Position numbers and translations under genes: made by a program | Part shown: piece after piece, positions 34,475 through 64,000 of the stretch | How the letters are laid out: every line of letters begins with the position of its first letter | How positions within the stretch are numbered: the stretch's first letter is position 1 | Origin: Octopus sinensis | Lineage: Eukaryota | DNA: 64,000 nt | NCBI RefSeq assembly: GCF_006345805.1 | Contig: NC_043010.1 | Span: 23,808,001-23,872,000, forward strand | Reading direction: 5' to 3' | Notes under the pieces: generated by a model | Told to the model about the DNA's origin: nothing | Database searches by the model: none | What the model saw: the letters and a program-made list of their open reading frames with translations, nothing else

Positions 34475-34868
34475 TCTACTCTAGGCAAAAGGCCTTGAAA
34501 ATGTTGGGGAAGGGGGCTAGTCGACTATATCGACACCAATACGTAACTGGTGCTTATTTCCTCGAACCCGAAAGGATGGAAGGCAAAGTCGACCTCGCCG
34601 GAAATTGAACTCAGAACGTAAAGACAAATGAAATATCTATTTCTTCACTACCCACAAGGGGCTACAACTGAGAGGACAAACAAGGACAGACAAACGGATT
34701 AAGTCGATTATATCGACCCCAGTGCGTAACTGGTACTTATTTAATCGATCCCGAAAGGATGAAAGGCAAAGTCGACATCGGCGGAATTTGAACACAAAAC
34801 GTAGCGGCAGACGAAATACCGCTAAGCATTTCGTCCGGCGTGCTTACATTTCTGCTAGCTGGCCGCCT
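34255..34868 (-). mobile_element. Cluster of three family A SINE copies
   Basis: Three AAAGGATG.AAGGCAAAGT.GAC blocks. Tx1-like tail on the minus strand at ~34640-34690. Confidence 0.85.
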
Positions 34869-48477: not shown

Positions 48478-49139
48478 TGGTGTGTGTGTGTGTGTGTGTA
48501 TGTATGTTATTATATACATATATATATAATATATGTATATATGTATGTATGTATGTATGTATATTATGTATGTATGTATAATGTATGTATATATATATAT
48601 ATATACATATATATTCTTTTTACTTGTTTCAGTCATTTGACTGCGGCCATGCTGGAGCACTACCTATAATCTTTATATATATAAAACTGAGAATGTGTGT
48701 CTGTCTGCCTGTCTGTCTGTTTGTTTCCCTAAAACTTGAGAACTACACAATTTTACCTTTTTGCCTAGAGCGAGCTCACAGCAATATCATATCTTCTCCA
48801 CTACGATTCCCTAAAACTTGAGAACTACACAACCAATTTCATTCAAAATTTACACATGCCTTACTTAGGGTCCATGTATTTTCATGGGCAAAATAATGCT
48901 CAACTTCTTCCTAGGGCGAGCCCATAGCAATATCATATCTTCTCCACTATATCAGTATTACGTGTTAAAAGTGAAACAAAAACATTTCTCTATTTTATGT
49001 CAGATATTTCACTTAAACAATAAAAATAATAATAACAATTGAATTATATGTAGTAAGAAATAATTAAAATCAAACCAAAGTATAATATAATCGTAACATA
49101 ACAAAAGTAAAAATAGCAATTGGTATAAAATTGCATCAA

Positions 49140-49297
49140 TGACTTGAACTTGAATAAGTGGTTTCACATGAATGGGAATAAATTAAAAATAAAATTAGCG
49201 TGCAGAAATGGAATAGTCTAGATGGATAATAAAATAAATCAAAGAAAAGACTATTGTCTATAAAGTATACAATGTAGAGAAAAAAGAAGATTTGAGC
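49140..49297 (+). pseudogene. Left part of an old, degenerate Tx1-type ORF1 (the interrupted target)
   Basis: KEKTIVYKVYNVEK/RRFEH(M) aligns with KTITYRTQD of the units and KRIIIYKTFND of the LINE; it continues at 62128. Confidence 0.6.
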
Positions 49298-51209
49298 ACA
49301 TGGCGGAACGCAAAGAGTGTGTTGGTTAGTTATTTTGCATGTGAAAATTTGGAAAAAAACTGTTAAAAAATTGTCAAAAATTGAATCGCGCGAGGCGTTT
49401 TGCCGCTGCGTGTTTGAACCTTTTATAGAAGGTGTGTCGACCCTCAAGTCATGGAGACTTACGCGGGGGTCGCCACAACAAAAAGTGACGAGTCACTTAG
49501 AATAAAAGAAGTGTTCTTTAGAAAAGAACAATTGAAGGAATACGAGAAGTTCGTCAAAAGGGAGGGTGACAGCGTGAAGCTGGTCCCGCCTGTGGAAATA
49601 GAAGAAAAAATAACAAGACGATAACGTATAGAACGCAAGATAGAAACACGAGAAAACTGGTGAGAGTGACGATTGAAGAAATAGAGAAATGTCTGGGGGA
49701 CATCATGAAAAAAGCGACTTTTGTAGACAGAGGAAAGAAATATGGTACGGTGGAGGTGAGATGCGCAACAAAGGAAGTGGCGGCCTCATTGGCTTCCACT
49801 GTCCTGAAAGCGGAAAATTTCACCATGTGGCCGACATATAAAGGAAGACGAGGGGTACGGGTAAGAGTCCCAAAGGTGCCCCCAAATATTAAAACAGAAA
49901 TGCTGGTAACAGCCATTATTGGGGCAGCAAAGAGGAAGTAGAAATAGGGTCAATTAGGAGACGAACGTTGTAAATTGGAGGGATTCGGAGTAGAGTTGTG
50001 GCTGATGGCCACAATGGAAGACATCGAAAGATTTCCCTTCCAAATAGAATAGAAAACGAAAAAACAATTAGTGTAATAGTGGAAGGCAGAAAACCGAATT
50101 GCTACCTGTGCGGTTCAAGAGGGCACATAAAAAAGGAATGTCCGCTGTATGAATTCACAGCGGAGCAAAAAGAGACACAAAGTGGAGAGAAGGAAAACAA
50201 ACACGAAGAAAGAACAGCGAAAACAAGGAAAAGGAAATAACGGAGAAACAACAAGAGAAGGGAAGTAACAGCGCACTGAAGGAAAATGAAAACAAAGGGA
50301 AGAAGATAGTAGAAAAGGAGCAAAATTCACAGGGTGCAGAAGTAGAGGAGAAGGAGCCAAGACAGAAGCAAGAGAAAGAAAAGGAAAGTACATTAAAGGA
50401 AAGAGAAAAAGCAGGAAAAGAACAAGAGAAGGAACCGAACCAAGAGAAAGGAAAAGATGGTATGCAAAAAGGAAAAGAAACAACAGGAAAGGAACTTAAG
50501 GCACAGGGTAGAGAGACGGCAGACAAAGAGCCAAAAAGACAAGAGAAGGAAAAAGAAAGAAGAGAAAGCAAAAAGAGAGAAAGAGAGAAACCGAGGGAGG
50601 AGAAAAAAGAGGAAGTAAGTCCTAAGAAAAAACTAGAGAAAACGTAGGTACGAATAGAAAATTCACTATGGAACGTTGATCCATCACAAGCACTGTGAGG
50701 AGATGGAAGATTTAATAAGCGAACAAACGGATATACGTGGGTCAGGATGGGCACCGAATGGAAAGAAACAGGTGCACTCGTCCACGAGAACGACGCCGAG
50801 AGGTTCATCGAGGCAGCTGGCGAGAAAGTGTTAAAACATATGAAATGCCGACTTACAAGGTGGCCTCGAACGATGGAAGTTTACTCAGACTTGGTAGACA
50901 TAATGGAGTATATATAAAAGAAAAGGTATTGTGAAAACTTAATTTGGAAATGATAAAAGAACTTTAAATTCGGAAAAAAAAAAAGAAATGTTGAACTTTG
51001 TAAAACTTTTGAAATGTATGTTGAAAATGTAAAAAATGTTTTATTTGGAAAATATTGATGACGAATAAAAATAAATGACGAAATGTAACCGCTCGATTTC
51101 GGGGATCGAGTGGGCATTGCACCACATTGTACAAACTTCATAATTCATTATTCATTTTCCCGATTGTATTGTCCCATCTATGTAGCCCCTAGTGGGTAAT
51201 AATAAAACA
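49298..51209 (+). mobile_element. Array unit 1: ORF1-only non-autonomous non-LTR element (1912 bp)
   Basis: Starts ACATGGCGGAACGCAAAG and ends ...GCCCCTAGTGGGTAATAATAAAACA. Near-identical to units 2-4. Confidence 0.9.
49451..50917 (+). pseudogene. Gag/ORF1-like zinc-knuckle protein, unit 1 (several small deletions)
   Basis: Fragments match the unit 4 protein; CYLCGSRGHIKKEC present. Confidence 0.8.
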
Positions 51210-53133
51210 ACATGGCGGAACGCAAAGAGTGTGTTGGTTAGTTATTTTGCATGTGAAAATTTGGAAAAAAACTGTTAAAAAATTGTCAAAAATTGAATCG
51301 CGCGAGGCGTTTGCCGCTGCGTGTTTGAACCTTTTATAGAAGGTGTGTCGACCCTCAAGTCATGGAGACTTACGCGGGGGTCGCCACAACAAAAAGTGAC
51401 GAGTCACTTAGAATAAAAGAAGTGTTCTTTAGAAAAGAACAATTGAAAGAATACGAGAAGTTCGTCAAAAGGGAGGGTGATAGCGTGAAGCTGGTCCCGC
51501 CTGTGGAAACAATAGAAGAGAAAAATAACATCACGATAACGTATAGAACGCAGATAGAAACACGAGAAAACTGGTGAGAGTGACGATTGAAGAAATAGAG
51601 AAATGTCTGGGGGACATCATGAAAAAAGCGACCTTTGTAGACAGAGAAGAAATATGGTACGGTGGAGGTGAGATGCGCAACAAAGGAAGTGGCGGCCTCA
51701 TTGGCTTCCACTGTCCTGAAAGCGGAAAATTTCACCATGTGGCCGACTTATAAAGGAAGACGAGGGGTACGGGTAAGAGTCCCAAGGTACCCCCAAATAT
51801 TAAAACAGAAATGCTGGTAACAGCCATTATTGGAGCAGCAAAAGAGGAAGTAGAAAATAGTTCAATTAAGGAGACGAACGTTGTAAATTGGAAGGGATTC
51901 GGAGTCGAGTTGTGGCTAATGGCCACAATGGAAGACATCGAAAGATTTCCCTTCCAAATAGAAATAGAAAACGAGAAGACAATTAGTGTAATAGTGGAAG
52001 GCAGAAAACCGAACTGCTACCTGTGCGGATCAAGAGGGCACATAAAAAAGGAATGTCCGCTGTATGAATTCACAGCGGAGCAAAAAGAGACACAAAGTGG
52101 AGACAAGAAAACGAACACGAAGGAAAGAACAGCGAAAACAAGGAAAAGGAAATAACGGAGAAACAACAAGAGAAGGGAAGTAACAGCGCACTGAAGGAAA
52201 ATGAAAACAAAGGGAAGAAGATAGTAGAAGAGGAGCAAAATTCACAGGGTGCAGAAGTAGTGAGAAGGAGCCAAGGCAGAAGCAAGAGAAAGAAAAGGAA
52301 AGTACATTAAAGGAAAGAGAAAAAGCAGGAAAAGAACAAGAGAAGGAACAGAACAAGAGAAAGGAAAAGATGGTATGCAAAAAGGAAAAGAAACAACAGG
52401 AAAGGAACTTAAGGCACAGGGTAGAGAGACGGCAGACAAAGAGCCAAAAAGACAAGAGAAGGAAAAAGAAAGAAGAGAAAGCAAAAAGAGAGAAAGAAGA
52501 AACCGAGGGAGAAAAAAGAGGAAGTAAGTCCTAAGAGAAAAACTAGAGAAAACGTAGGTACGAATAGAAAATACAAATACTATGGAACGTTGATCCATCA
52601 CAAGCACTGTGAGGAGATGGAAGATTTAATAAGCGCAACAAACGGATATACGTGGGTCAGGATGGGCACCGAATGGGAAGAAACAGGTGCACTCATCCAC
52701 GAGAACGACGCCGAGGCGTTCATCGAGGCAGCTGGCGAGAACGTGTTAAAACATATGAAATGCCGACTTAAAAGGTGGCCTCGAACGATGGAACTTTACT
52801 CAGATTTGGTAGACATAATGGAGTGTATAGAATAGAAAAGGTATTGTGAAAACTTAATTTGGAAATGATAAAAAGAACTTTAAATTCGGAAAAAAAAAAA
52901 AAAAAAAAAAAAGAATGTTGAACTTTGTAAAACTTTTTGAAATGTATGTTGAAAATGTAAAAAATGTTTTATTGAAAATATTGTTGACGAACAAAATTAA
53001 TTGACGAAATGTAACCGCTCGATTTCGGGGATCGAGCGGGCATTACACCACATTGTACAAACTTCATAATTCATTATTCATTCCCGATTGTATTGTCCCA
53101 TCTATGTAGCCCCTAGTGGGTAATAATAAAACA
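51210..53133 (+). mobile_element. Array unit 2 (1924 bp)
   Basis: Same termini and body as unit 1. Confidence 0.9.
51362..52835 (+). pseudogene. Gag/ORF1-like protein, unit 2 (frameshifted)
   Basis: ORF pieces 51362.., 51811.. and 52590.. match the unit 4 protein. Confidence 0.8.
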
Positions 53134-55058
53134 ACATGGCGGAACGCAAAGAGTGTGTTGGTTAGTTATTTTGCATGTGAAAATTTGGAAAAAAACTGTT
53201 AAAAAATTGTCAAAAATTGAATCGCTTGAGGCGTTTGCCGCTGCGTGTTTGAACCTTTTATAGAAGGTGTGTCGACCCTCAAGTCATGGAGACTTACGCG
53301 GGGGTCGCCACAACAAAAAGTGACGAGTCACTTAGAATAAAAGAAGTGTTTTTTAGAAAAGAACAATTGAAAGAATACGAGAAGTTCGTCAAAAGGGAGG
53401 GTGACAGCGTGAAGCTGGTCCCGCCTGTGGAAACAATAGAAGAGAAAAATAACATCACGATAACGTATAGAACGCAAGATAGAAACACGAGAAAACTGGT
53501 GAGAGTGACGATTGAAGAAATAGAGAAATGTCTGGGGGACATCATGAAAAAAGCGACTTTTGTAGACAGAGGAAAGAAATATGGTACGGTGGAGGTGAGA
53601 TGCGCAACAAAGGAAGTGGCGGCTCATTGGCTTCCACTGTCCTGAAAGCGGAAAATTTCACCATGTGGCCGACGTATAAAGGAAGACGAGGGGTACGGGT
53701 AAGAGTCCCAAAGGTACCCCCAAATATTAAAACAGAAATGCTGGTAACAGCCATTATTGGAGCAGCAAAAGAGGAAGTAGAAATAGGGTCAATTAAGGAG
53801 ACGAACGTTGTAAATTGGAAGGGATTCGGAGTCGAGTTGTGGCTGATGGCCACAATTGAAGACATCGAAAGATTTCCCTTCCAAATAGAAATAGAAAACG
53901 AAAAAACAATTAGTGTAATAGTGGAAGGCAGAAAACCGAATTGCTACCTGTGCGGTTCAAGAGGGCACATAAAAAAGGAATGTCCGCTGTATGAATTCAC
54001 AGCGGAGCAAAAAGAGACACAAAGTGGAGAGAAGGAAAACGAACACGAAGGAAAGAACAGCGAAAACAAGGAAAAGGAAATAACGGAGAAACAACAAGAG
54101 AAGGGAAGTAACAGCGCACTGAAGGAAAATGAAAACAAAGGGAAGAAGATAGTAGAAAAGGAGCAAAATTCACAGGGTGCAGAAGTAGAGGAGAAGGAGC
54201 CAAGGCAGAAGCAAGAGAAAGAAAAGGAAAGTACATTAAAGGAAAGAGAAAAAGCAGGAAAAGAACAAGAGAAGGAACAGAACCAAGAGAAAGGAAAAGA
54301 TGGTATGCAAAAAGGAAAAGAAACAACAGGAAAGGAACTTAAGGCACAGGTAGAGAGACGGCAGACAAAGAGCCAAAAAGACAAGAAAGGAAAAAGAAGA
54401 AGAGAAAGCAAAAAGAGAGAAAGAGAGAACCGAGGGAGGAGAAAAAAGAGGAAGTAAGTCCTAAGAGAAAAACTAGAGAAAACGCAGGTACGAATAGAAA
54501 ATTCAAATACTATGGAACGTTGATCCATCACAAGCACTGTGAGGAGATGGAAGATTTAATAAGCGAAACAAACGGATATACGTGGGTCAGGATGGGCACC
54601 GAATGGAAAGAAACAGGTGCACTCGTCCACGAGAACGACGCCGAGGCGTTCATCGAGGCAGCTGGCGAGAACGTGTTAAAACATATGAAATGCCGCCTTC
54701 CAAGGTGGCCTCGAACGATGGAAGTTTACTCAGATTTGGTAGACATAATGGAGTATATATAAAAGAAAAGGTATTGTGAAAACTTAATTTGGAAATGATA
54801 AAAGAACTTTAAATTCGGAAAAAAAAAAAAAAGAAATGTTGAACTTTGTAAAACTTTTTGAAATGTATGTTGAAAATGTAAAAAATGTTTTATTTGAAAA
54901 TATTGTTGACCAATTAAAAATAAATGACGAAATGTAACCGCTCGATTTCGGGGATCGAGTGGGCATTGCACCACATTGTACAAACTTCATAATTCATTAT
55001 TCATTTTCCCGATTGTATTGTCCCATCTATGTAGCCCCTAGTGGGTAATAATAAAACA
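53134..55058 (+). mobile_element. Array unit 3 (1925 bp)
   Basis: Same termini and body as unit 1. Confidence 0.9.
53286..54762 (+). pseudogene. Gag/ORF1-like protein, unit 3 (frameshifted)
   Basis: ORF pieces 53286.., 53528.. and 54520.. match the unit 4 protein. Confidence 0.8.
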
Positions 55059-56985
55059 ACATGGCGGAACGCAAAGAGTGTGTTGGTTAGTTATTTTGCA
55101 TGTGAAAATTTGGAAAAAAACTGTTAAAAAATTGTCAAAAATTGAATCGCTTGAGGCGTTTGCCGCTGCGTGTTTGAACCTTTTATAGAAGGTGTGTCGA
55201 CCCTCAAGTCATGGAGACTTACGCGGGGGTCGCCACAATAAAAAGTGACGAGTCTCTTAGAATAAGAGAAGTGTTCTTTAGAAAAGAACAATTGAAGGAA
55301 TACGAGAAGTTCGTCAAAAGGGAGGGTGACAGCGTGAAGCTGGTCCCACCTGTTGAAACAATAGAGGAGAGAAATAACAAGACGATAACGTATAGAACGC
55401 AAGATAGAAACACGAGAAAACTGGTGAGAGTGACGATTGAAGAAATAGAGAAATGTATGGGGGACATCATGAAAAAAGCGACTTTTGTAGACAGAGGAAA
55501 GAAATATGGTACGGTGGAGGTGAGATGCGGAACAAAGGAAGTGGCGGCCTCATTGGCTTCCACTGTCCTGAAAGCCGAAAATTTCACTATGTGGCCGACG
55601 TATAAAGGAAGACGAGGGGTACGGGTAAGAGTCCCAAAGGTGCCCCCAGATATTAAAACAGAAATGCTGGTAACAGCCATTATTGGAGCAGCAAAGGAGG
55701 AAGTAGAAATAGGGTCAATCAAGGAGACGAACGTTGTAAATTGGAAGGGATTCGGAGTAGAGTTGTGGCTGATGGCCACAATGGAAGACATCGAAAGATT
55801 TCCCTTCCAAATAGAAATAGAAAACGAGAAAACAATTAGTGTAATAGTGGAGGGCAGAAAACCGAATTGCTACCTGTGCGGATCAAGAGGGCACATAAAA
55901 AAGGAATGTCCGCTGTATGAATTCACAGCGGAGCAAAAAGAGACACAAAGTGGAGAGAAGGAAAACGAACACGAAGGAAAGAACAGCGAAAACAAGGAAA
56001 AGGAAATAACGGAGAAACAACAAGAGAAGGGAAGTAACAGCGCACTGAAGGAAAATGAAAACAAAGGGAAGAAGATAGTAGAAAAGGAGCAAAATTCACA
56101 GGGTGCAGAAGTAGTGGAGAAGGAGCCAAGGCAGAAGCAAGAGAAAGAAAAGGAAAGTACATTAAAGGAAAGAGAAAAAGCAGGAAAAGAACAAGAGAAG
56201 GAACAGAACCAAGAGAAAGGAAAAGATGGTATGCAAAAAGGAAAAGAAACAACAGGAAAGAACATAAGGCACAGGGTAGAGAGACGGCAGACGAAGAGCC
56301 AAAAAGACAAGAGAAGGAAAAAGAAAGAAGAGAAAGCAAAAAGAGAGAAAGAGAGAAACCGAGGGAGGAGAAAAAAGAGGAAGTAAGTCCTAAGAGAAAA
56401 ACTAGAGAAAACGTAGGTGCGAATAGAAAATTCAAATACTATGGAACGTTGATCCATCACAGGCACTGTGAGGAGATGGAAGATTTAATAAACGTAACAA
56501 ATGGATATACGTGGGTCAGGATGGGCACCGAATGGAAAGAAACAGGTGCACTCGTCCACGAGAACGACGCTGAGGCGTTCATCGAGGCAGCTGGCAGGAA
56601 CGTGACAAAACATATGAAATGCCGACTTACAAGGTGGCCACGAACGATGGAAATTTACCATGATTTGGTAGAGATAATGGAGTATATATAAAAGAAAAGG
56701 TATTGTGAAAACTTTAATTTGGAAATGATAAAAAGAACTTTAAATTCTGGAAAAAAAAAATGTTGAACTTTGTAAAATTTTTGAAATGTATGTTGAAAAT
56801 GTGTAAAATGTTTTTATTTGGAAAATATTGTTGACGAATAAAAAACAAATGACGAAATGTAACCGCTCGATTTCGGGGATCGAGTGGGCATTACACCACA
56901 TTGTACAAACTTCATAATTCATTATTCATTTTTTCCCATTGTATTGTCCCATCTATGTTCGCCCCTTGTGGGTAATAATAAAACA
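55059..56985 (+). mobile_element. Array unit 4 (1927 bp)
   Basis: Same body as units 1-3. Its 3' tail variant is identical to the LINE tail. Confidence 0.9.
55211..56691 (+). CDS. Gag/ORF1-like protein (~493 aa after repairing a 1-nt deletion near 56260): N-terminal domain, CX2CX4HX4C knuckle, E/K-rich low-complexity region, ~85-aa C-terminal domain
   Basis: The 391-aa ORF 55211..56386 joins the 80-aa ORF 56449..56691 when GGAAAG(G)AAC is restored as in units 1-3. Homologous to LINE ORF1 (RGK.YGTVEVR, VEGRKP.C..CG..GH....C). Confidence 0.75.
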
Positions 56986-57211
56986 ACATGGAGGAACGCA
57001 AATCGCGTGTGTAGTGAGTTATTATATTTTTCCTTAGTGTATATTTTCTCCGTTATATTCTACTGTGTGTCTAATTGTCTTTGTTTTTTGTTGTACAACT
57101 GTTGAAGTCAGCCTTCGTGCGAGGGATTCGTGTTGGTGTTCCCCCCTCCGTGGGGGAAAAACTATCATTATTGCGGCTTGTGCCAAGGGCTTGTTAAGCC
57201 AGTTGCTCGAG

Positions 57212-58494
57212 ATGGAATCCCCCATCTCATATTCCCCTGTGACTAGTGAAGCAGAATCACCGGCGGTGTCGCCAATGAAAAAAGATATTGCAGCTCCAGC
57301 GAAAAAATTTTCAGAAGTAGCTGGCAAGAAAATCAAAAGAATAAACGTCGAAGACCTAAAGAAATATGCAGACTGTGTGACAAAAAAGGGCACGGAAGTG
57401 ACAGTGGTCACAAACGCCCCAAAACAGGAAGAAATTGCTAAAAGAATAATAATTTATAAGACCTTTAATGATACAAAAATTTGAGGAAAAAAAAATCGAA
57501 AATTGCTTAAAACCAATAATGGATAAGATCACATACATCAATAGAGGAAAGAGATACGGCACAGTGGAGGTGCGATTCACAACAGAGGAGATAGCTAAAA
57601 AAACTATCTATGGAGCCAATAAAAGCGGAGAACATTGTTCTCCTCCCCCTGTATAGAGGAAAAAGAACATCAAAAATCACCATGAATAATATTCCGCCAG
57701 AAGCGGATGCCGAATGTCTGGTGGCAGCAGTTATGGTAGGCCTGGAGGAAAAAATAAACATCCTCCAGGCCACAGTAGAGGAAGAAGAATTCTGGAAAGG
57801 ACAGCGGATAATAATATCCATCCAGGCAGAAATTCAAACATTGGAGGAGATTCCAGAGACTCTAAAAATAAGCGAAGAAGATAGAGTAATAGTTTTCGTA
57901 GAGGGCAGAAAGCCGAGGTGCTTCGGCTGCGGCAAGAAGGGGCATGTAAGGGCGAAATGCCAACCCCAACCCAAACCGCAGGAAGCAGCTCAGCCAGGTG
58001 GAAAAGAAGAAGTGTCACCAGTAGCAGCGTCGGGCGGCCCAGAAGGGACGGCTGAAGGTGTGGAGGTGACAGAGGCAGCGGAACCAGCGACGGAGGAAAA
58101 AAAGAGCGAGGTAACGAAAAATGAGGAGGGGTGGTCAAAAATTACTAGAAAAAAAAGAAAAACTGAAACCACCCCTCCCATAGTGATCATAAAGAAGAAA
58201 AGAGAGTCGATGAACTTATTTATGGCCGTTAAGGCATCGAACAACAGACTCGGGAATGTGTTGGCAGCTATGGCCAAAGTGGAAAAAATAGGAAAAAAAA
58301 ATGACTATATAGTGTACAGAATAGGCCGGAAGGATTACGGACGGATAAAGTCCGAATTCTTTCATGACGTGGGCCCGCTCAGAATGGATATAACATCTCC
58401 ATATATATTCGAGGGCCTGCGTCAGACTCCCCCACGAGGCCCAGAAAAAGAGACAAACAAAGAAGAAAAAGAAAAAACCGAACCACTGATATAA
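57212..58494 (+). CDS. LINE ORF1 (Gag-like CCHC zinc knuckle), two apparent frameshifts in A-runs (~57478, ~57600)
   Basis: MESPISYSP...KRIIIYKTFND / FEEKKIENCL...RGKRYGTVEVRF / MEPIKAEN...EGRKPRCFGCGKKGHVRAKC. Confidence 0.85.
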
Positions 58495-58502
58495 AGTAAG
58501 TA

Positions 58503-61500
58503 ATGGATTACATTTATGTTGGTTGTTTAAATGTGCGCGGCCTGGGATCAGGCTGGAAGCAAGGTCGCTTCCTGCATGATATCAGGTCGCGTAATTTAGA
58601 TGTTATTGTTGCTACAGAAACCCGGTTAGAGGGGCCAAGAGGTCTACTCCCGCTGTTTGACGGCTACGAGAGTTTTTCTCTCCTGGCAGTCCTACAGGCG
58701 GGGGTGGGGTGTTGGTCCTATTAAAAAGAAACCGGGTTTCTGAGAAAAAGTTAATTTTTGCAGATCCAGAAGGTAGGCTGGTCGTCATGGATTTGACGTT
58801 CAGTAACGGTAAAGTTATCAGACTGGTTGCAATTTACGCACCCAACCATAGAGGGCAAAGTGATTATTTTCGTGAACTGGAAAACTTTCTTGGTACTTCG
58901 CATTCATTAGTTGTGCTAGGAGACTTTAACACAATTTGCAAAGCGGATGTAGATTGTGTTAGCTCGCGTCCAGATAGAAAAGGTAACAGTGGCTTCATGG
59001 AACTGCTAAGCCGCTTTGAGCTAGCAGATCCTTATAGGCTGGAATTTCCGAACGCTCCATTGTGGACATGGTCAAACAGCGACGGATCTTCCAGGTCATA
59101 TTTAGATAGAATACTAATTAGAAAAGTAGACAGAAATATAGCTAAGTGTCCACAGTTTTACCTGGTCAGCTACAGTGATCATAAAATGGTCACCTGTAAG
59201 CTTGACATAGATAAGGTTAAAAATAGAGGATCCGGTTACTGGAAACTTAATACGTCCCTTTTGGCGATTAAGGAGTACAAAGACCGGATTAGGACTATAA
59301 TTCAGAGGGCACTATCTGGTACCATCATTAATAACAAATGGTGGTACGCCCTCAAACGAGCCATCAAATTCGAGTCAATTAGATATAGCATAGGAGTAGT
59401 GGCTAGAGAGGCTAGGAGGGAAACTACTCTAGTTAAGGAATTAGAGGAAGCCTTGACAACTGGCTCCGCGGCTCAGGTGACGTCCAAGAGACTGGTGTTA
59501 AACCAGCACCTCGAGGCCAAACACATGGGCTGCATTGTCAGGGCTAGGATCCGCCATATGGGTTGTGAAGGAATTAACGCCGTGAGATGGGTGGAAGCTC
59601 AGCATGGTAACGATGCCACGATTCGATCTTTGACGAACCAACAAGGTGAGTTGATAAACGAGCCCGAGGAGATGTGCGAGGCCTTTCAGGAGCACTTCGC
59701 TCAGCTTTTCGGTGAGTGCGGCGGACTGGATAGGAGAAGGGCCTTTACGGACATCCTCGACGGGCTGCCGCGCTTATCGGGGCGAGATGCGGAGGGCTGT
59801 GAAGGGCCAATCACGCCTGGGGAGGTGGTTGAGGCGATGGCGGACTGCGGCGCGGGCAAGGCGCCGGATTTAGATGGTCTACCCTATGAGTTATATAAGA
59901 GTATGCCAGACTTGTTCGGGCACCTACCGGCGGAGGTCTATGCGAACTGGCAGCAGAACGGGCTCATACCCAGATCTGTGCGCCGGGGAGTAGTGACACT
60001 CGTCAGAAAGGACCCGAGCAAGGGGGAGTGCATTGATAATTTTAGGCCCATCACTCTGCTAAACACAGAGTTGAAGATTTTGGCCAAAGTGTTATCGAAA
60101 AGATTGGCGCGTGTCGCGGATGGTCTGATCGGGGAGGTACAGACATGTGCCGTTCCGGGCAGAACCATTCAGGATAATCTCCATCTTATGCGGTACACTA
60201 TAGAGGGGTTTAATAGCGATTCTGGCAAGGGTGGGGCACTGGTCCATTTAGACCAATCTAAAGCATTTGATAGGGTCGACCATCGCTACCTGGTATCTGC
60301 CCTGGCACAGTTCGGGCTGAGCCTCGGCTTCCTCAGGTGGATTATCCAAATTTACGACAACATCGACTCGGTAGTTCGGGTGAACGGCTTCTTGTCGAAG
60401 CCGTTCAACATCAAACGCTCGGTTCGTCAAGGGTGTCCGCTCTCCCCGCTTTTGTATGTGATGGCTCTTGAGCCATTACTGCGAAAACTGAGCGGCATCC
60501 CGAGACAGCCAGGTAGTGGAAAATCGGTGTCAGCGTACGCGGATATCACCATCATCGTAACCGAAATGGACCACATACGTAAAGTAGGCAAGGCCATAGA
60601 GGTTTACGAGACGGTGACAGGAGCAAAAGTTAATCGCGAAAAGTCAGTCGGCTTGCAACTCGGCACCTGGAGAGGCAAGTCGATGCCTCCTGACAGCGTC
60701 GTGGGACGTTTGACGGAGGGTCCGATTAAGTTGCTAGGGGTTTGGTTCGGTCCAGACCTCCAAATAGAGAAGAATTGGGGCGAGGTATCGAGCAGGGTGG
60801 CTGCAGTAACCAAGACCTGGTCTTGGCGGTGGCTATCCCTGAAAGGGAGGGCGGAGGTAGCCAATGTGTTTATCGCATCGGTTATCACCTACCGCCTTTC
60901 CGTCGTTCCTTGCCCTGATTCGTGGTTGATCAAGTTGGAAAGACAGCTCTTCTACTTCTTGTGGAAGGGCGGGAAACCACTTGTGAAACGCTCTACTTGC
61001 TGTCAACAACCGTTAAAGGGTGGGCTAGGGATGCCTTGGCTGATGATGCGCAGACATGCGCTGAGGTTAAGACATCTGTGGCTCTACCTGGATGGTGAAC
61101 GGGTGTGGTCTCCGCTAGCAAAACTGATGTTTCCCAAGTTCACTAGTTTCGGTGGATGGGAAACCTGGCTGAATCGTAGATCGAAACTAGGCACATGGTA
61201 CACGGAGTGTCGCAAGGCTCTTCTGCTATTCCGTCGCTCGGGCAACGCCTGCGGTGGGGGTTCCACCACATTCTTCTATAGAGGGTTGGTAGAGGCGGAA
61301 TGTGAAGATACCTTGGGGGAAACCCTAGGTCTCGACGATAATCAGCTGGCCAGTCTGTTCCGACGTACGTTCGAGCCGAAGACACTGGACAACTTCCAGA
61401 AGTCTCTGGCATGGCAATGCTACAGAGGAGCTCTACCTGTTCGGGATAAACTCGCAAGGCACGGTGGCCAAGACAATCCGATATGTCCAAGATGCGAGCG

Positions 61501-61885
61501 GGATAGGGAAACCGTCCCGCACGCTATTGTTCATTGTTCGGACGTGTCTGAGGTGTGGGTTTATGCCGAACAGCTGTTGTCAAGCACACGAAGAGTACAG
61601 CTGTCGACTGAATCGATTACAAAAATTGACCCACCAGATTTCCTCGCGAAAGAAGGTAAGAATTGTTTTCTCGTAGTAGTAGCAATTGCGAAAGAGGTGA
61701 TATGGAAGACGAGAATGAAAGGTTTACAGTCAGGCAAGTTCATCTCCAACCCTGGTTTGATGAATTATTTCATCTTTCACCTGAAAAGGAAGATAGGGCT
61801 GGAGAGAATATGCCTGACTAGGAGAGTGTATGAAGAACGATGGAAAAATGTAGCACGAAAGTTGCGAATGGATGTTACCACATAA
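58503..61885 (+). CDS. LINE ORF2: AP endonuclease, reverse transcriptase and C-terminal CCHC zinc finger; one frameshift near 58680
   Basis: APE motifs LNVRGL, TETR, IYAPN, GDFN, LDRIL, SDHK; GYWKLNTSLL; RT motifs FRPITLLN, LDQSKAFDRV, VRQGCPLSPLLY, YAD(-)I, KGGLG; CPRC-X8-H-X4-C. Confidence 0.95.
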
Positions 61886-62127
61886 ATGTAAAACCGGACG
61901 AAACCAAAGTATCAGTGGGGAGGCGGGGCTCGTGGAGTCCGAGCTAAACCCGCTCCCACTCCATCCGTAATGTCTTCCGGTCTGTGCTCCATTCGATTTT
62001 TTATATTTTGTAATTTTTTGTAAATTTTTAAAATTCGCTTTGTTGTAAAACCCATTCGTGTATCTGACCCCATCATCAGATTGTATTGTCCCATCTATGT
62101 TCGCCCCTTGTGGGTAATAATAAAACA

Positions 62128-62445
62128 ACATGGAGGAAAGCACCTTCGAAAAGTGTCTTTGTGCGACTATGAAAGATATCTAATCAGAGGCGGTAAAGTC
62201 GCCACAATAGAAGCAAGGTTCGAGTCAACGGAGCGTGCAAGGGAGTATTCGACTCGAACTTGCAAAGTGGAATTATATTTTACTTTTCCCTTTATATCTG
62301 GGACGTAGGACGTCCGGAAAAAAATTTTTAATGCATCCCCCACCCCAGAAGTAGAGGTAGGCTGTATTGTAGCCACGCTTCTATACAAGAGGGAGGGCAA
62401 GATACAATTGATCGAAATTACAAGAGACGGGCTAACAATTCCAGT
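62128..62445 (+). pseudogene. Right part of the old degenerate Tx1-type ORF1 (continuation of 49140-49297)
   Basis: MEESTFEKCLCATMKDI / YLIRGGKVATIEARFESTERA / LYLGRRTS / PEVEVGCIVATLL align with IEKCMGDIMKKATFVDRGKKYGTVEVRC..TYKGRR..PPDIKTEMLVTAII. Confidence 0.75.
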
Positions 62446-62799
62446 CTGTTATATATTTTGAGTATTGTTATCACTAGCGATATCAACATATAACTTTGTA
62501 TTTCGTATTTTATGTGTAGATGTATATATATAGAAGTACATGTAATATGTACACATATATATACACATATATACATGCACTAGCACTATGACCCGGCAAG
62601 GCCGGGTCTTTAATGCTAGTATATATATATATATCATCGACCGCATATACTCAATGCTTGTTTTCTTGTTCGTTGGTTCGCTGCGTACATCGCTCTAGAG
62701 ACGACTCCTGCATAACACTGGATGTTAGAATACCTGAAAGTCATATGCAAGTGAGACACCATGCTTCCAGTCCCATCCAAGGGTGGTGGATACCGACAT

Positions 62800-62925
62800 T
62801 TCGCTGCTTTCAGTTTTCGTCCACTTACAAGACTTTGGTCGACCCGGTGATGTTATAGAAGACCAGCTGTGGGACTGAACCGGAAACCATGTAGCTGGCA
62901 AGCAAACTTTTTTACCACACAGCTA
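62800..62925 (-). mobile_element. Family C SINE head fragment
   Basis: GTGGGACTGAACCGGAAACCATGT..GCAAGCAAAC..ACCACACAGC as in 25585-25640. Confidence 0.65.
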
Positions 62926-62976
62926 CGTCTATACATTTACATACACGCTCATATTTAAGTTGAGGCACACACACTC

Positions 62977-63057
<81 letters not shown>

Positions 63058-63661
63058 GTGTGTGTTGTGCATATATGCAGGTATTTATACATATATATAT
63101 GACACGTTATCTCGTTTGGAATTTCTGTATCGATAATTTTTACGTAAACTAAACACTAGACGCAGAAATCCACAGGTTAAACAAACAGCAATTCATGAAC
63201 GGGTATTTTGAAAAACTATTGGACAAAGAGTCATGGAACAACACAAGTAGAATAACAACAACAGCAACAACGAAATAAAAGGAAATAAAACTAAAATTCG
63301 ACAGACACCAAACCTATTAAATATGCACAAATCATACGCCAAGTGAATGATATAAATCAAATGAACACCAACCGCAGAATAGGTGAGCACATGATCAGAA
63401 ACCCACGTAAACCAAGAAAGAAAACGTGTTACAACAAACTATATATTAACGTGAGTAATATACTATTAAAACAACTGAAATTAAAAACTTTCTGAAGAAT
63501 AATAAATCAGAAATTTGTAAACCCAGGAGCCGGTGACTAACGACCAATGTGGTTTATAGATTTCTATTGTAAACGTGTAGGTTGTAAATTTCATGACTAT
63601 GGCTGCTATTCTGGCAGTAAATTCAGTTGCATACTGTGGGGTTGCAGAGTAGAGGAAACGA

Positions 63662-64000
63662 GGCGGCGAGCTGGTAGAAACGTTAGCACGCCGGACGAAA
63701 TGCTTAGCGGCATTTCGTCTGCCGTTACGTTCTTAGTTCAAATTCTGCCGAGGTCGATTTTGCCTTTCATCCTTTCGGGGCCGATTAAAGAAGTACCAGT
63801 TACGCACTAGGGTCGATATAATCGACTTAATCCGTTTGTCTGTCCTTGTTCGTCCTCTCTATGTTTAGCCCCGTGTGGGTAGTGAAGAAATAGGTATTTC
63901 GTCTGCCGTTACGTTATGAGTTCAAATTCCTCCGAGGTCAACTTTGCCTTTCATCCTTTTGGGGTTGATAAATTAAGTACCAGTTACGCACTGGGGTCGA
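63662..64000 (+). mobile_element. Family A SINE plus tandem partial copy (runs off the window)
   Basis: Same head, central domain and Tx1-like tail as 3659-3892 and 18855-19262. Confidence 0.88.

Follow-up and report, generated by a model that had tools for sequence, protein, structure and literature searches.

Head-to-tail trains of ORF1-only retroelements and L1/Tx1-group LINEs within a Helitron of Octopus sinensis

A stretch of 64,000 nucleotides of Octopus sinensis DNA (NCBI RefSeq assembly GCF_006345805.1, contig NC_043010.1, forward-strand positions 23,808,001 to 23,872,000; hereafter the window) contains a head-to-tail train of five retroelements, in which four units carrying only a first open reading frame (ORF1) precede one full-length two-ORF long interspersed nuclear element (LINE). 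The train sits within a dispersed non-autonomous Helitron, other copies of which are either empty or filled at the same base. We propose, with considerable confidence, that the ORF1-only elements are partners mobilised in trans by the LINE ORF2 protein and that they stack at the front of the train.

An earlier note on this DNA, made from its letters alone, had described four abutting units of 1912-1927 bp, a 5142-bp LINE and six junction motifs, and the coordinates bear this layout out. The motifs (n = 6) lie at 49298, 51210, 53134, 55059, 56986 and 62128, all on the + strand; the units measure 1912, 1924, 1925 and 1927 bp and the LINE 5142 bp, and the elements abut. The note had also assigned one tail of about 48 nt to all five. 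The 3' tails (n = 5) lie at 51164, 53088, 55013, 56939 and 62081, and 48 of the 48 terminal bases are common to unit 4 and the LINE, but the tail of units 1-3 is slightly different. Of the 38 bases at the 5' end, unit and LINE have 31 in common. No two units are identical: they are 94-96% alike and differ from one another by 31-80 substitutions and 13-22 indels.

Helitron sites and the order of insertion

The flanks of the array are the two halves of one Helitron. Both recur genome-wide, and in empty copies they join into an element of 0.9-1.4 kb (about 1.2 kb) that starts with TC, ends with a hairpin and CTAG, and lies between A and T in unrelated outer flanks; there are 2485 candidates. By these ends, by its insertion between A and T and by the lack of a target duplication, the host is a dispersed non-autonomous Helitron. 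Its left arm (48670-49297, +) starts with TC after an A and includes a TATA-like box and the beginning of an ORF1 relic, while its right arm (62128-62619, +) holds the target duplication, the remainder of the relic (to about 62430), an unused second insertion site near 62438, the hairpin (62590-62608) and the CTAG end before a T. The insertion site falls inside this relic, a decayed piece of ORF1 that stems from the same LINE group and is carried by the Helitron (about 49240-49297 and 62128-62430 in the window; best tblastn E 3e-9, from three empty loci).

Filled and empty sites coexist. Half of the 30 best Helitron copies (15) are filled, all at one base, and the other 15 are empty, and exact patterns detected 110 occupied sites and 315 left-arm junctions of the empty type, a few of which are filled. 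Neither are the units confined to this locus, since at least 46 near-full-length copies of their family (family A) lie outside the window on 18 contigs (37 of 802 candidates were scored). Tail flanks, counted by hand, are likewise not random: 55 of 73 unit tails from a position-ordered list adjoin the Helitron or a train member, 2 lie in a third repeat and 16 elsewhere, and the corresponding figures for 73 LINE tails are 44 (31 at the Helitron and 13 at a train member), 8 and 21. The LINE tails exceed the level of more than 20% of flanks in one repeat that is used to define a Tx1 target (PMC4494074). As a secondary target, the third repeat has been hit repeatedly, at several sites close together, and it has small trains of its own (L028, L162, L163).

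The order in which the elements arrived can be read from the junction motif, which differs between trains. Judged by its variants, this motif is the target duplication copied onward as a 5' tag that drifts freely. The proposal that each element's 5' end recreates the target was half right: the duplication is carried as a 5' tag, but the tag drifts and the position of the cut follows the left arm. Across 42 trains, 24 cross-family neighbour pairs were informative, and the tag was closer to the downstream neighbour in 21 and to the Helitron in 2 (permutation p 2e-4; the pairs stem from 16 trains and fewer tag lineages and are not all independent). Derived tag letters form 11 left-anchored blocks and no right-anchored ones. 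This passage of tag variants to upstream neighbours across families indicates that trains likely grow at the front, newcomers stacking upstream, in keeping with the order of stacking first suspected. The internal tag of the last element has the local Helitron variant in four of the five trains in which the Helitron has one, compared with 1 of 30 without (Fisher p 5e-4), suggesting that the last element was joined to its target before others came in front of it. Comparison with the Helitron arms shows the insert to be the younger in 365 of 368 pairs (45/45, 123/126 and 197/197), and each unit of the window has its nearest relative on another contig, at 7-16 shared-variant differences as against 22-59 within the window.

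ORF1-only families, LINE partners and rival explanations

Loci were fetched in three sets, 26 chosen from unit and junction matches, 32 for stray copies or arrays and 29 from a position-ordered motif list. The two-component system of the earlier note gave way to a larger guild, comprising three LINE subfamilies and no fewer than four families with ORF1 alone, for which the labels L1, L2 and L3 (LINE) and A, B, B2 and C (ORF1-only) were coined in this analysis. The ORF1-only elements measure 1.9 kb (A), 1.75 kb (B), 1.9 kb (B2) and 1.67 kb (C, with two subtypes), and the LINE subfamilies L1, L2 and L3 are 82-92% alike over ORF2. Both kinds are mixed in trains that reach 15 elements or 36 kb, and their tails are versions of one tail. 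Compared with the ORF1 of A, identity is 70% for B2, 65% for B, 25% for C and 28-30% for the LINE. The ORF1 tree unites A, B and B2 in a clade with 100/100 support, and C is a long branch; because the placement of C is unsure, ORF2 may have been lost twice. The same identity of 28-30% and the separate clade led us to reject the units as simple deletion derivatives of the resident LINE, in agreement with the view that they are not internal deletions of it. Among the A/B-type ORF1 motifs in the fetched DNA (129 of the 268 in existence), 126 lead into the tail, none into ORF2 and 3 are cut short, consistent with the reported lack of reverse transcriptase (RT) and endonuclease in the units; no autonomous element with this ORF1 was found among these 129.

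The unit ORF1 encodes a zinc knuckle (PF00098, E 2e-5), as had been noticed, and is under purifying selection. An open frame of 486-517 aa is present in 13 of 56 A copies, among which the ratio of nonsynonymous to synonymous polymorphism (pN/pS) is 0.34 for shared variants (p 2.5e-11) versus 0.69 for singletons. Between families, the corresponding divergence ratio (dN/dS) is 0.08-0.18 in the N-terminal core and 0.08-0.21 in the C-terminal domain where measurable, with dS of at least 0.7. Stray copies bear target duplications of 15-18 bp in 14 of the 21 examined (two of the 14 being one event), and 6 are also 5'-truncated. By these marks of target-primed reverse transcription, the units are true non-autonomous, protein-coding retroelements, and they have what characterises ORF1-present non-autonomous LINEs: ORF1 only, selection on ORF1, a 3' end in common with a LINE and the signs of retrotransposition. 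The protein-coding non-autonomous family surmised from a single locus is hence upheld by dispersed copies, selection and retrotransposition marks. The N-terminal 240 residues are predicted to fold into two RRM domains and a zinc knuckle (predicted local distance difference test, pLDDT, 77), with IMP3 RRM1-2 as the best Foldseek match (E 2e-5; VIA Z 8.7, root-mean-square deviation 2.5 over 77 aligned residues). The C-terminal domain is modelled as a small alpha/beta sandwich (pLDDT 74; best VIA Z 7.5, root-mean-square deviation 1.9, 65 aligned), for which neither a Foldseek match at E 0.001 nor an Atlas match was found.

The LINE belongs to the L1 superclade (L1/Tx1 group), having two ORFs, an APE endonuclease, an RT nearest to that of L1 and a C-terminal cysteine-rich motif. 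Its ORF2 gives Pfam matches to endonuclease, RT and zf-RVT, and its best match in the PDB is human L1 ORF2p (E 1.5e-57), with R2 at E 2.5e-22; named Tx1 references were absent among 120 listed RT matches, 18 APE matches and 10 clusters. None of the five window elements is intact as assembled. All four unit ORFs are closed by stops after 57, 71, 119 and 391 of 493 codons, and the LINE has frameshifts within ORF1 and where the endonuclease begins and is without one YADD aspartate of the RT active site (the codon would lie near 60540, +), a residue kept in 55 of the 58 stretches examined; no other of the 58 shows this loss. Since no reading frame of the window is intact, the helper is presumably an intact LINE located elsewhere, and other copies have an open 1131-aa ORF2 with APE and RT motifs and a full ORF1 of their own (456-459 aa). 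The idea that the LINE ORF2 serves as helper is favoured by the common tail and by these open copies, but the LINE in the window is broken. Named protein relatives come from Octopus and Argonauta, among them an O. bimaculoides protein that is 47-52% identical to A/B/B2 and 34% to the LINE ORF1. One cluster (P0260) contains ORF1 relatives from four contigs whose lengths, 1849-1930 bp, match that of a unit; these are possibly ORF1-only elements of another organism. A search of sequencing runs listed no RNA dataset with the unit, and 20 rows from 9 studies, under four organism labels, that contain part of it as contigs were left out of the analysis.

Several observations weigh against mobilisation in trans with stacking at the front of a Helitron site. 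Outside Helitron trains lie 18 of the 73 unit tails and 29 of the 73 LINE tails, and small trains without a left arm exist (L004, L162, L165, C9); the sequence-specific internal site that had been postulated stands as a fixed point in the Helitron, but the specificity is a preference and not absolute. The sampling of loci was non-random, 26 having been chosen from unit or junction matches. Many copies in long arrays have their closest relative within their own train (A 19/44, B 24/32), so that local amplification adds copies. The relatedness of A copies is correlated with that of the LINE copies next to them (rho 0.37, p 0.002 in 19 pairs; -0.12 in a first, smaller set of 11), which one-at-a-time insertion does not predict, distances of A elements and Helitrons are weakly correlated (rho 0.28, p 0.047, in one of three tests), and the LINE is terminal in 27 of 28 mixed trains, with 9.5 expected. 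Block transfer or the co-activity of sub-lineages may contribute to train formation. In its full form, block movement would have the units ride in cis, either on read-through RNA from front units into the LINE or through a jump of the RT from LINE RNA onto unit RNAs. The terminal LINE, the co-variation, the excess of units before a LINE over the reverse order (29 vs 4) and the diagnostic letters common to four trains in A (7 sites) and in the LINE (17 sites), whose Helitron arms differ by 5-12%, all fit such movement. We nevertheless regard it as unlikely: the internal tag of the last element matches the local Helitron variant, units insert alone in empty Helitrons and at stray sites, where they are 5'-truncated, internal junctions are without the extra left-arm letters found on RNA ends, tags differ in one of those four related trains, and simultaneous activity of two sub-lineages accounts for the correlation equally well.

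Local tandem amplification of one unit by unequal crossover, or an artefact of assembly, would draw on the internal relatedness of some long trains (9 A copies on C1, 6 B copies on C3), on one long train with a gap and a repeated left arm, and on the frameshifts, which number 9.6 per ORF in multi-copy trains versus 4.1 otherwise. Single-base deletions in unit ORFs fall in homopolymer runs in 304 of 371 cases (54% expected), and because of this excess and the greater number in multi-copy trains, most unit frameshifts look like consensus errors. As a general account it is very improbable, for trains mix families merely 25-72% alike and the sequence is free of N across 48670-62619, and for the window local duplication was rejected, the nearest relatives of all four units being on other contigs. 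Capture of a train by the Helitron on a single occasion, followed by rolling-circle spread, might be read into the complete Helitron ends around the trains and the captured ORF1 relic, but it has almost no standing, since the inserts are less diverged than the arms in nearly every pair given above; hitchhiking was rejected on that ground, and furthermore left- and right-arm distances are uncorrelated (rho -0.02) and train content varies by site. A different kind of alternative concerns function: the unit ORF1 could be a helper on which the LINE depends, the two sharing tasks as with HeT-A, or an inhibitor of the LINE recruited by the host, and not the packaging protein of a parasite. Long purifying selection, the age of the lineage implied by the O. 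bimaculoides protein, and ZCCHC3-type domains among the Atlas look-alike clusters (score 0.90) point that way; ZCCHC3 reportedly suppresses LINE-1. Against this, the LINE has its own full ORF1 and inserts alone at the same site, and selection on a mobile copy number of hundreds is expected from cis-acting packaging, making either role improbable.

A probable insertion address in the Helitron left arm

The address for insertion appears to be the Helitron left arm, with cuts 36-40 nt past a TATA-like box. In the window this heptamer (49259-49265, +), a putative promoter element, lies 39 nt ahead of the insertion point, and the first site is cut 36-39 nt past the box in general. In a Helitron subfamily with a deletion (147 matches, of which 99 of the 100 listed are empty), another sequence lies 39 nt past the same box, and all 12 filled second-site junctions examined are within this subfamily; in full-length Helitrons (607 matches), the second-site sequence is unoccupied in 30 of 30 examined and in no fewer than 99 of 100 listed. 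In trains capped by a C element, an A element is inserted about 40 nt past the box, inside C's own 5' end, as judged by eye. The junction motif would be a weak determinant, because tags drift widely while trains keep growing. A measured distance is not the whole explanation: in a left arm shorter by 3 nt the letters at the cut are unchanged although they lie 36 and not 39 nt past the box, so local sequence matters too. In all 12 junctions examined between family C and the left arm, the point of contact is the same and 11 nt of the target are deleted (L179-L184, L225).

Seven full-length insertions at off-site positions open with 2-7 letters from the very end of the left arm, and tail letters stand at the start of none of them, even though front copies are fewer than internal ones (read by eye; a further four gave no information). 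These beginnings suggest that the RNA starts about 31-35 nt past the box and that the elements at the front of trains are the donors. The left arm might even act as a shared external promoter as well as a landing pad, only the front element being transcribed and each insertion silencing the one behind it, an idea that we find plausible but against which the balance tilts somewhat. If true, a contest for the front seat would let ORF1-only parasites arise and persist for millions of years, as at Drosophila telomeres but without a telomere, and stacking itself, not service to the host, would breed ORF1-only families.

These data are consistent with a model that starts from coexisting empty and filled Helitron sites whose inserts are younger than the Helitron copies. 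The ORF2 protein of an intact LINE elsewhere would bind the common tail, nick the left arm 36-40 nt past the TATA-like box and reverse-transcribe the RNA, and a second cut 15-18 nt on would produce the duplication seen in the sequence. If the donor RNA begins a few bases before its own duplication, the motif would be carried along as a 5' tag, which would then pair with the new duplication to give a clean junction. As variant polarity indicates, the left arm would stay intact and the next element would land in front, copying its neighbour's tag. The partners keep their ORF1, with two RRM domains and a zinc knuckle, under purifying selection, and its product would package its own RNA. Capture of the left-arm promoter by the front position could, in a last step to which we attach less weight, make the newest copy the only donor.

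Known systems and other features of the window

The closest parallels lie in four systems, compared here with those portions of the cited accounts that describe them. Like HeT-A, TART and TAHRE of Drosophila (PMC5537684, PMC13534243), the octopus trains are mixed head-to-tail arrays of two-ORF LINEs and ORF1-only families, with several ORF1-only lineages, some spawning new ones, with purifying selection on ORF1 and with a promoter outside the element proper (a putative one in the octopus). The Drosophila elements differ in being of the Jockey clade and in occupying chromosome ends, where no nick or target duplication is needed, whereas the octopus elements are of the L1/Tx1 group, with an RT nearest to L1, occupy interstitial Helitron sites on large contigs, produce 15-18-bp duplications and have no known host function; they are accordingly not members of the telomeric group. 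Tx1-Mar and SINEU in Mariner-N4_AMi, and Tx1L in Tx1D (PMC4494074), likewise combine a Tx1-type LINE and non-autonomous partners at fixed sites in a non-autonomous DNA transposon, and the target duplication is sandwiched by tandem copies and 5' extensions derive from the target. The partners there are non-coding short interspersed nuclear elements (SINEs) headed by small nuclear RNA sequence, unlike the protein-coding 1.7-1.9-kb octopus elements with their Helitron host and trains of up to 15 elements.

Drosophila R1 arrays in 28S ribosomal DNA (PMC2718515) also build up as new copies enter the duplication found at an older copy's 5' end. R1 RNAs carry 6-27 nt of upstream target, which anneals to give a precise junction, and one lineage has a fixed upstream deletion (9 bp, in melanogaster-type R1) comparable to the 11-nt deletion of family C. 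R1 is distinguished by its clade, its fixed rRNA target, its autonomous copies only and its constant inter-copy sequence, whereas the octopus tag drifts and passes between families. HAL1, Ag-Sponge and TRE5-A.2 (PMC5786205, PMC5753468, PMC5633606) are ORF1-present non-autonomous LINEs moved in trans, and TRE5-A inserts at a fixed distance from a promoter-bound complex. These are presented as offshoots of known parent LINEs and their accounts, in the portions used, describe no mixed trains, whereas no parent with the same ORF1 was found for the octopus families.

Each ingredient therefore has a precedent, in R1 arrays, Tx1-Mar/SINEU, HeT-A or HAL1, and the combination seems new. Literature searches yielded no account of it, PMC4758252 and PMC11203168 contributed nothing further, and Repbase, Dfam, the O. 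vulgaris repeat library and supplements may contain the families. Octopus surveys (PMC13282606, PMC8967140) report, in the parts drawn on, active L1-Tx1 and Helitron families without such trains, and the O. vulgaris library lists 80 L1-Tx1 and 84 Helitron families (PMC13282606). A 2026 survey found that ORF2 was lost in dozens of lineages of telomeric Drosophila retrotransposons and apparently not in non-telomeric Jockey elements (PMC13534243). The octopus trains would add an independent case of arrays with ORF1-only partners, in another LINE group, away from telomeres and at more than 100 separate loci, in which drifting tags record the order of insertion. Three questions become testable with them: whether stacking by itself favours elements reduced to ORF1, whether a LINE can aim behind a promoter rather than at a sequence, and what ORF1 does for passenger RNA. 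The families are young and open LINE frames exist in the genome, and they may still shape octopus genomes.

Within the window, unit 1 (49298-51209, ORF1 from 49451 to about 50917), unit 2 (51210-53133, ORF1 51362 to about 52832) and unit 3 (53134-55058, ORF1 53286 to about 54762) are frameshifted family A elements on the + strand. Unit 4 (55059-56985, +) represents another sub-lineage of A, with a LINE-type tail and one frameshift in its ORF1 (55211 to about 56691). The 5' tag of unit 1 (49298-49316, +) is a copy of the target duplication, in a variant identical in units 1-4. The LINE (56986-62127, +) comprises ORF1 (57212-58494) and ORF2 (58503-61885; APE, RT and CCHC), and the common 48-nt 3' tail (62080-62127, +) terminates each unit too.

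An abundant SINE-like repeat at 63655-63900 (+) and near 34678 (-) has a tail that resembles those of the LINE and family C by a fuzzy match, and the same LINE group may also mobilise it; insertions also occur in its head (L151, L227). No tRNA was predicted by ARAGORN in 62600-64000, and an Rfam scan returned microsatellite-like microRNA matches only, all below the gathering score. Elsewhere in the genome, a different LINE family (65-69% alike), itself arranged in tandem, carries a two-unit train in the 3' portion of its ORF2, at a locus that is duplicated (L129-L130, L135-L136, C9), and two near-identical long trains 115 kb apart (L174-L176; C3:72266000-72286000) represent a segmental duplication or an assembly duplicate. 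Near the start of the window, an inverted repeat pair of 513 bp and 98% identity (833-1343 and 2404-2915) likely marks an element with terminal inverted repeats.

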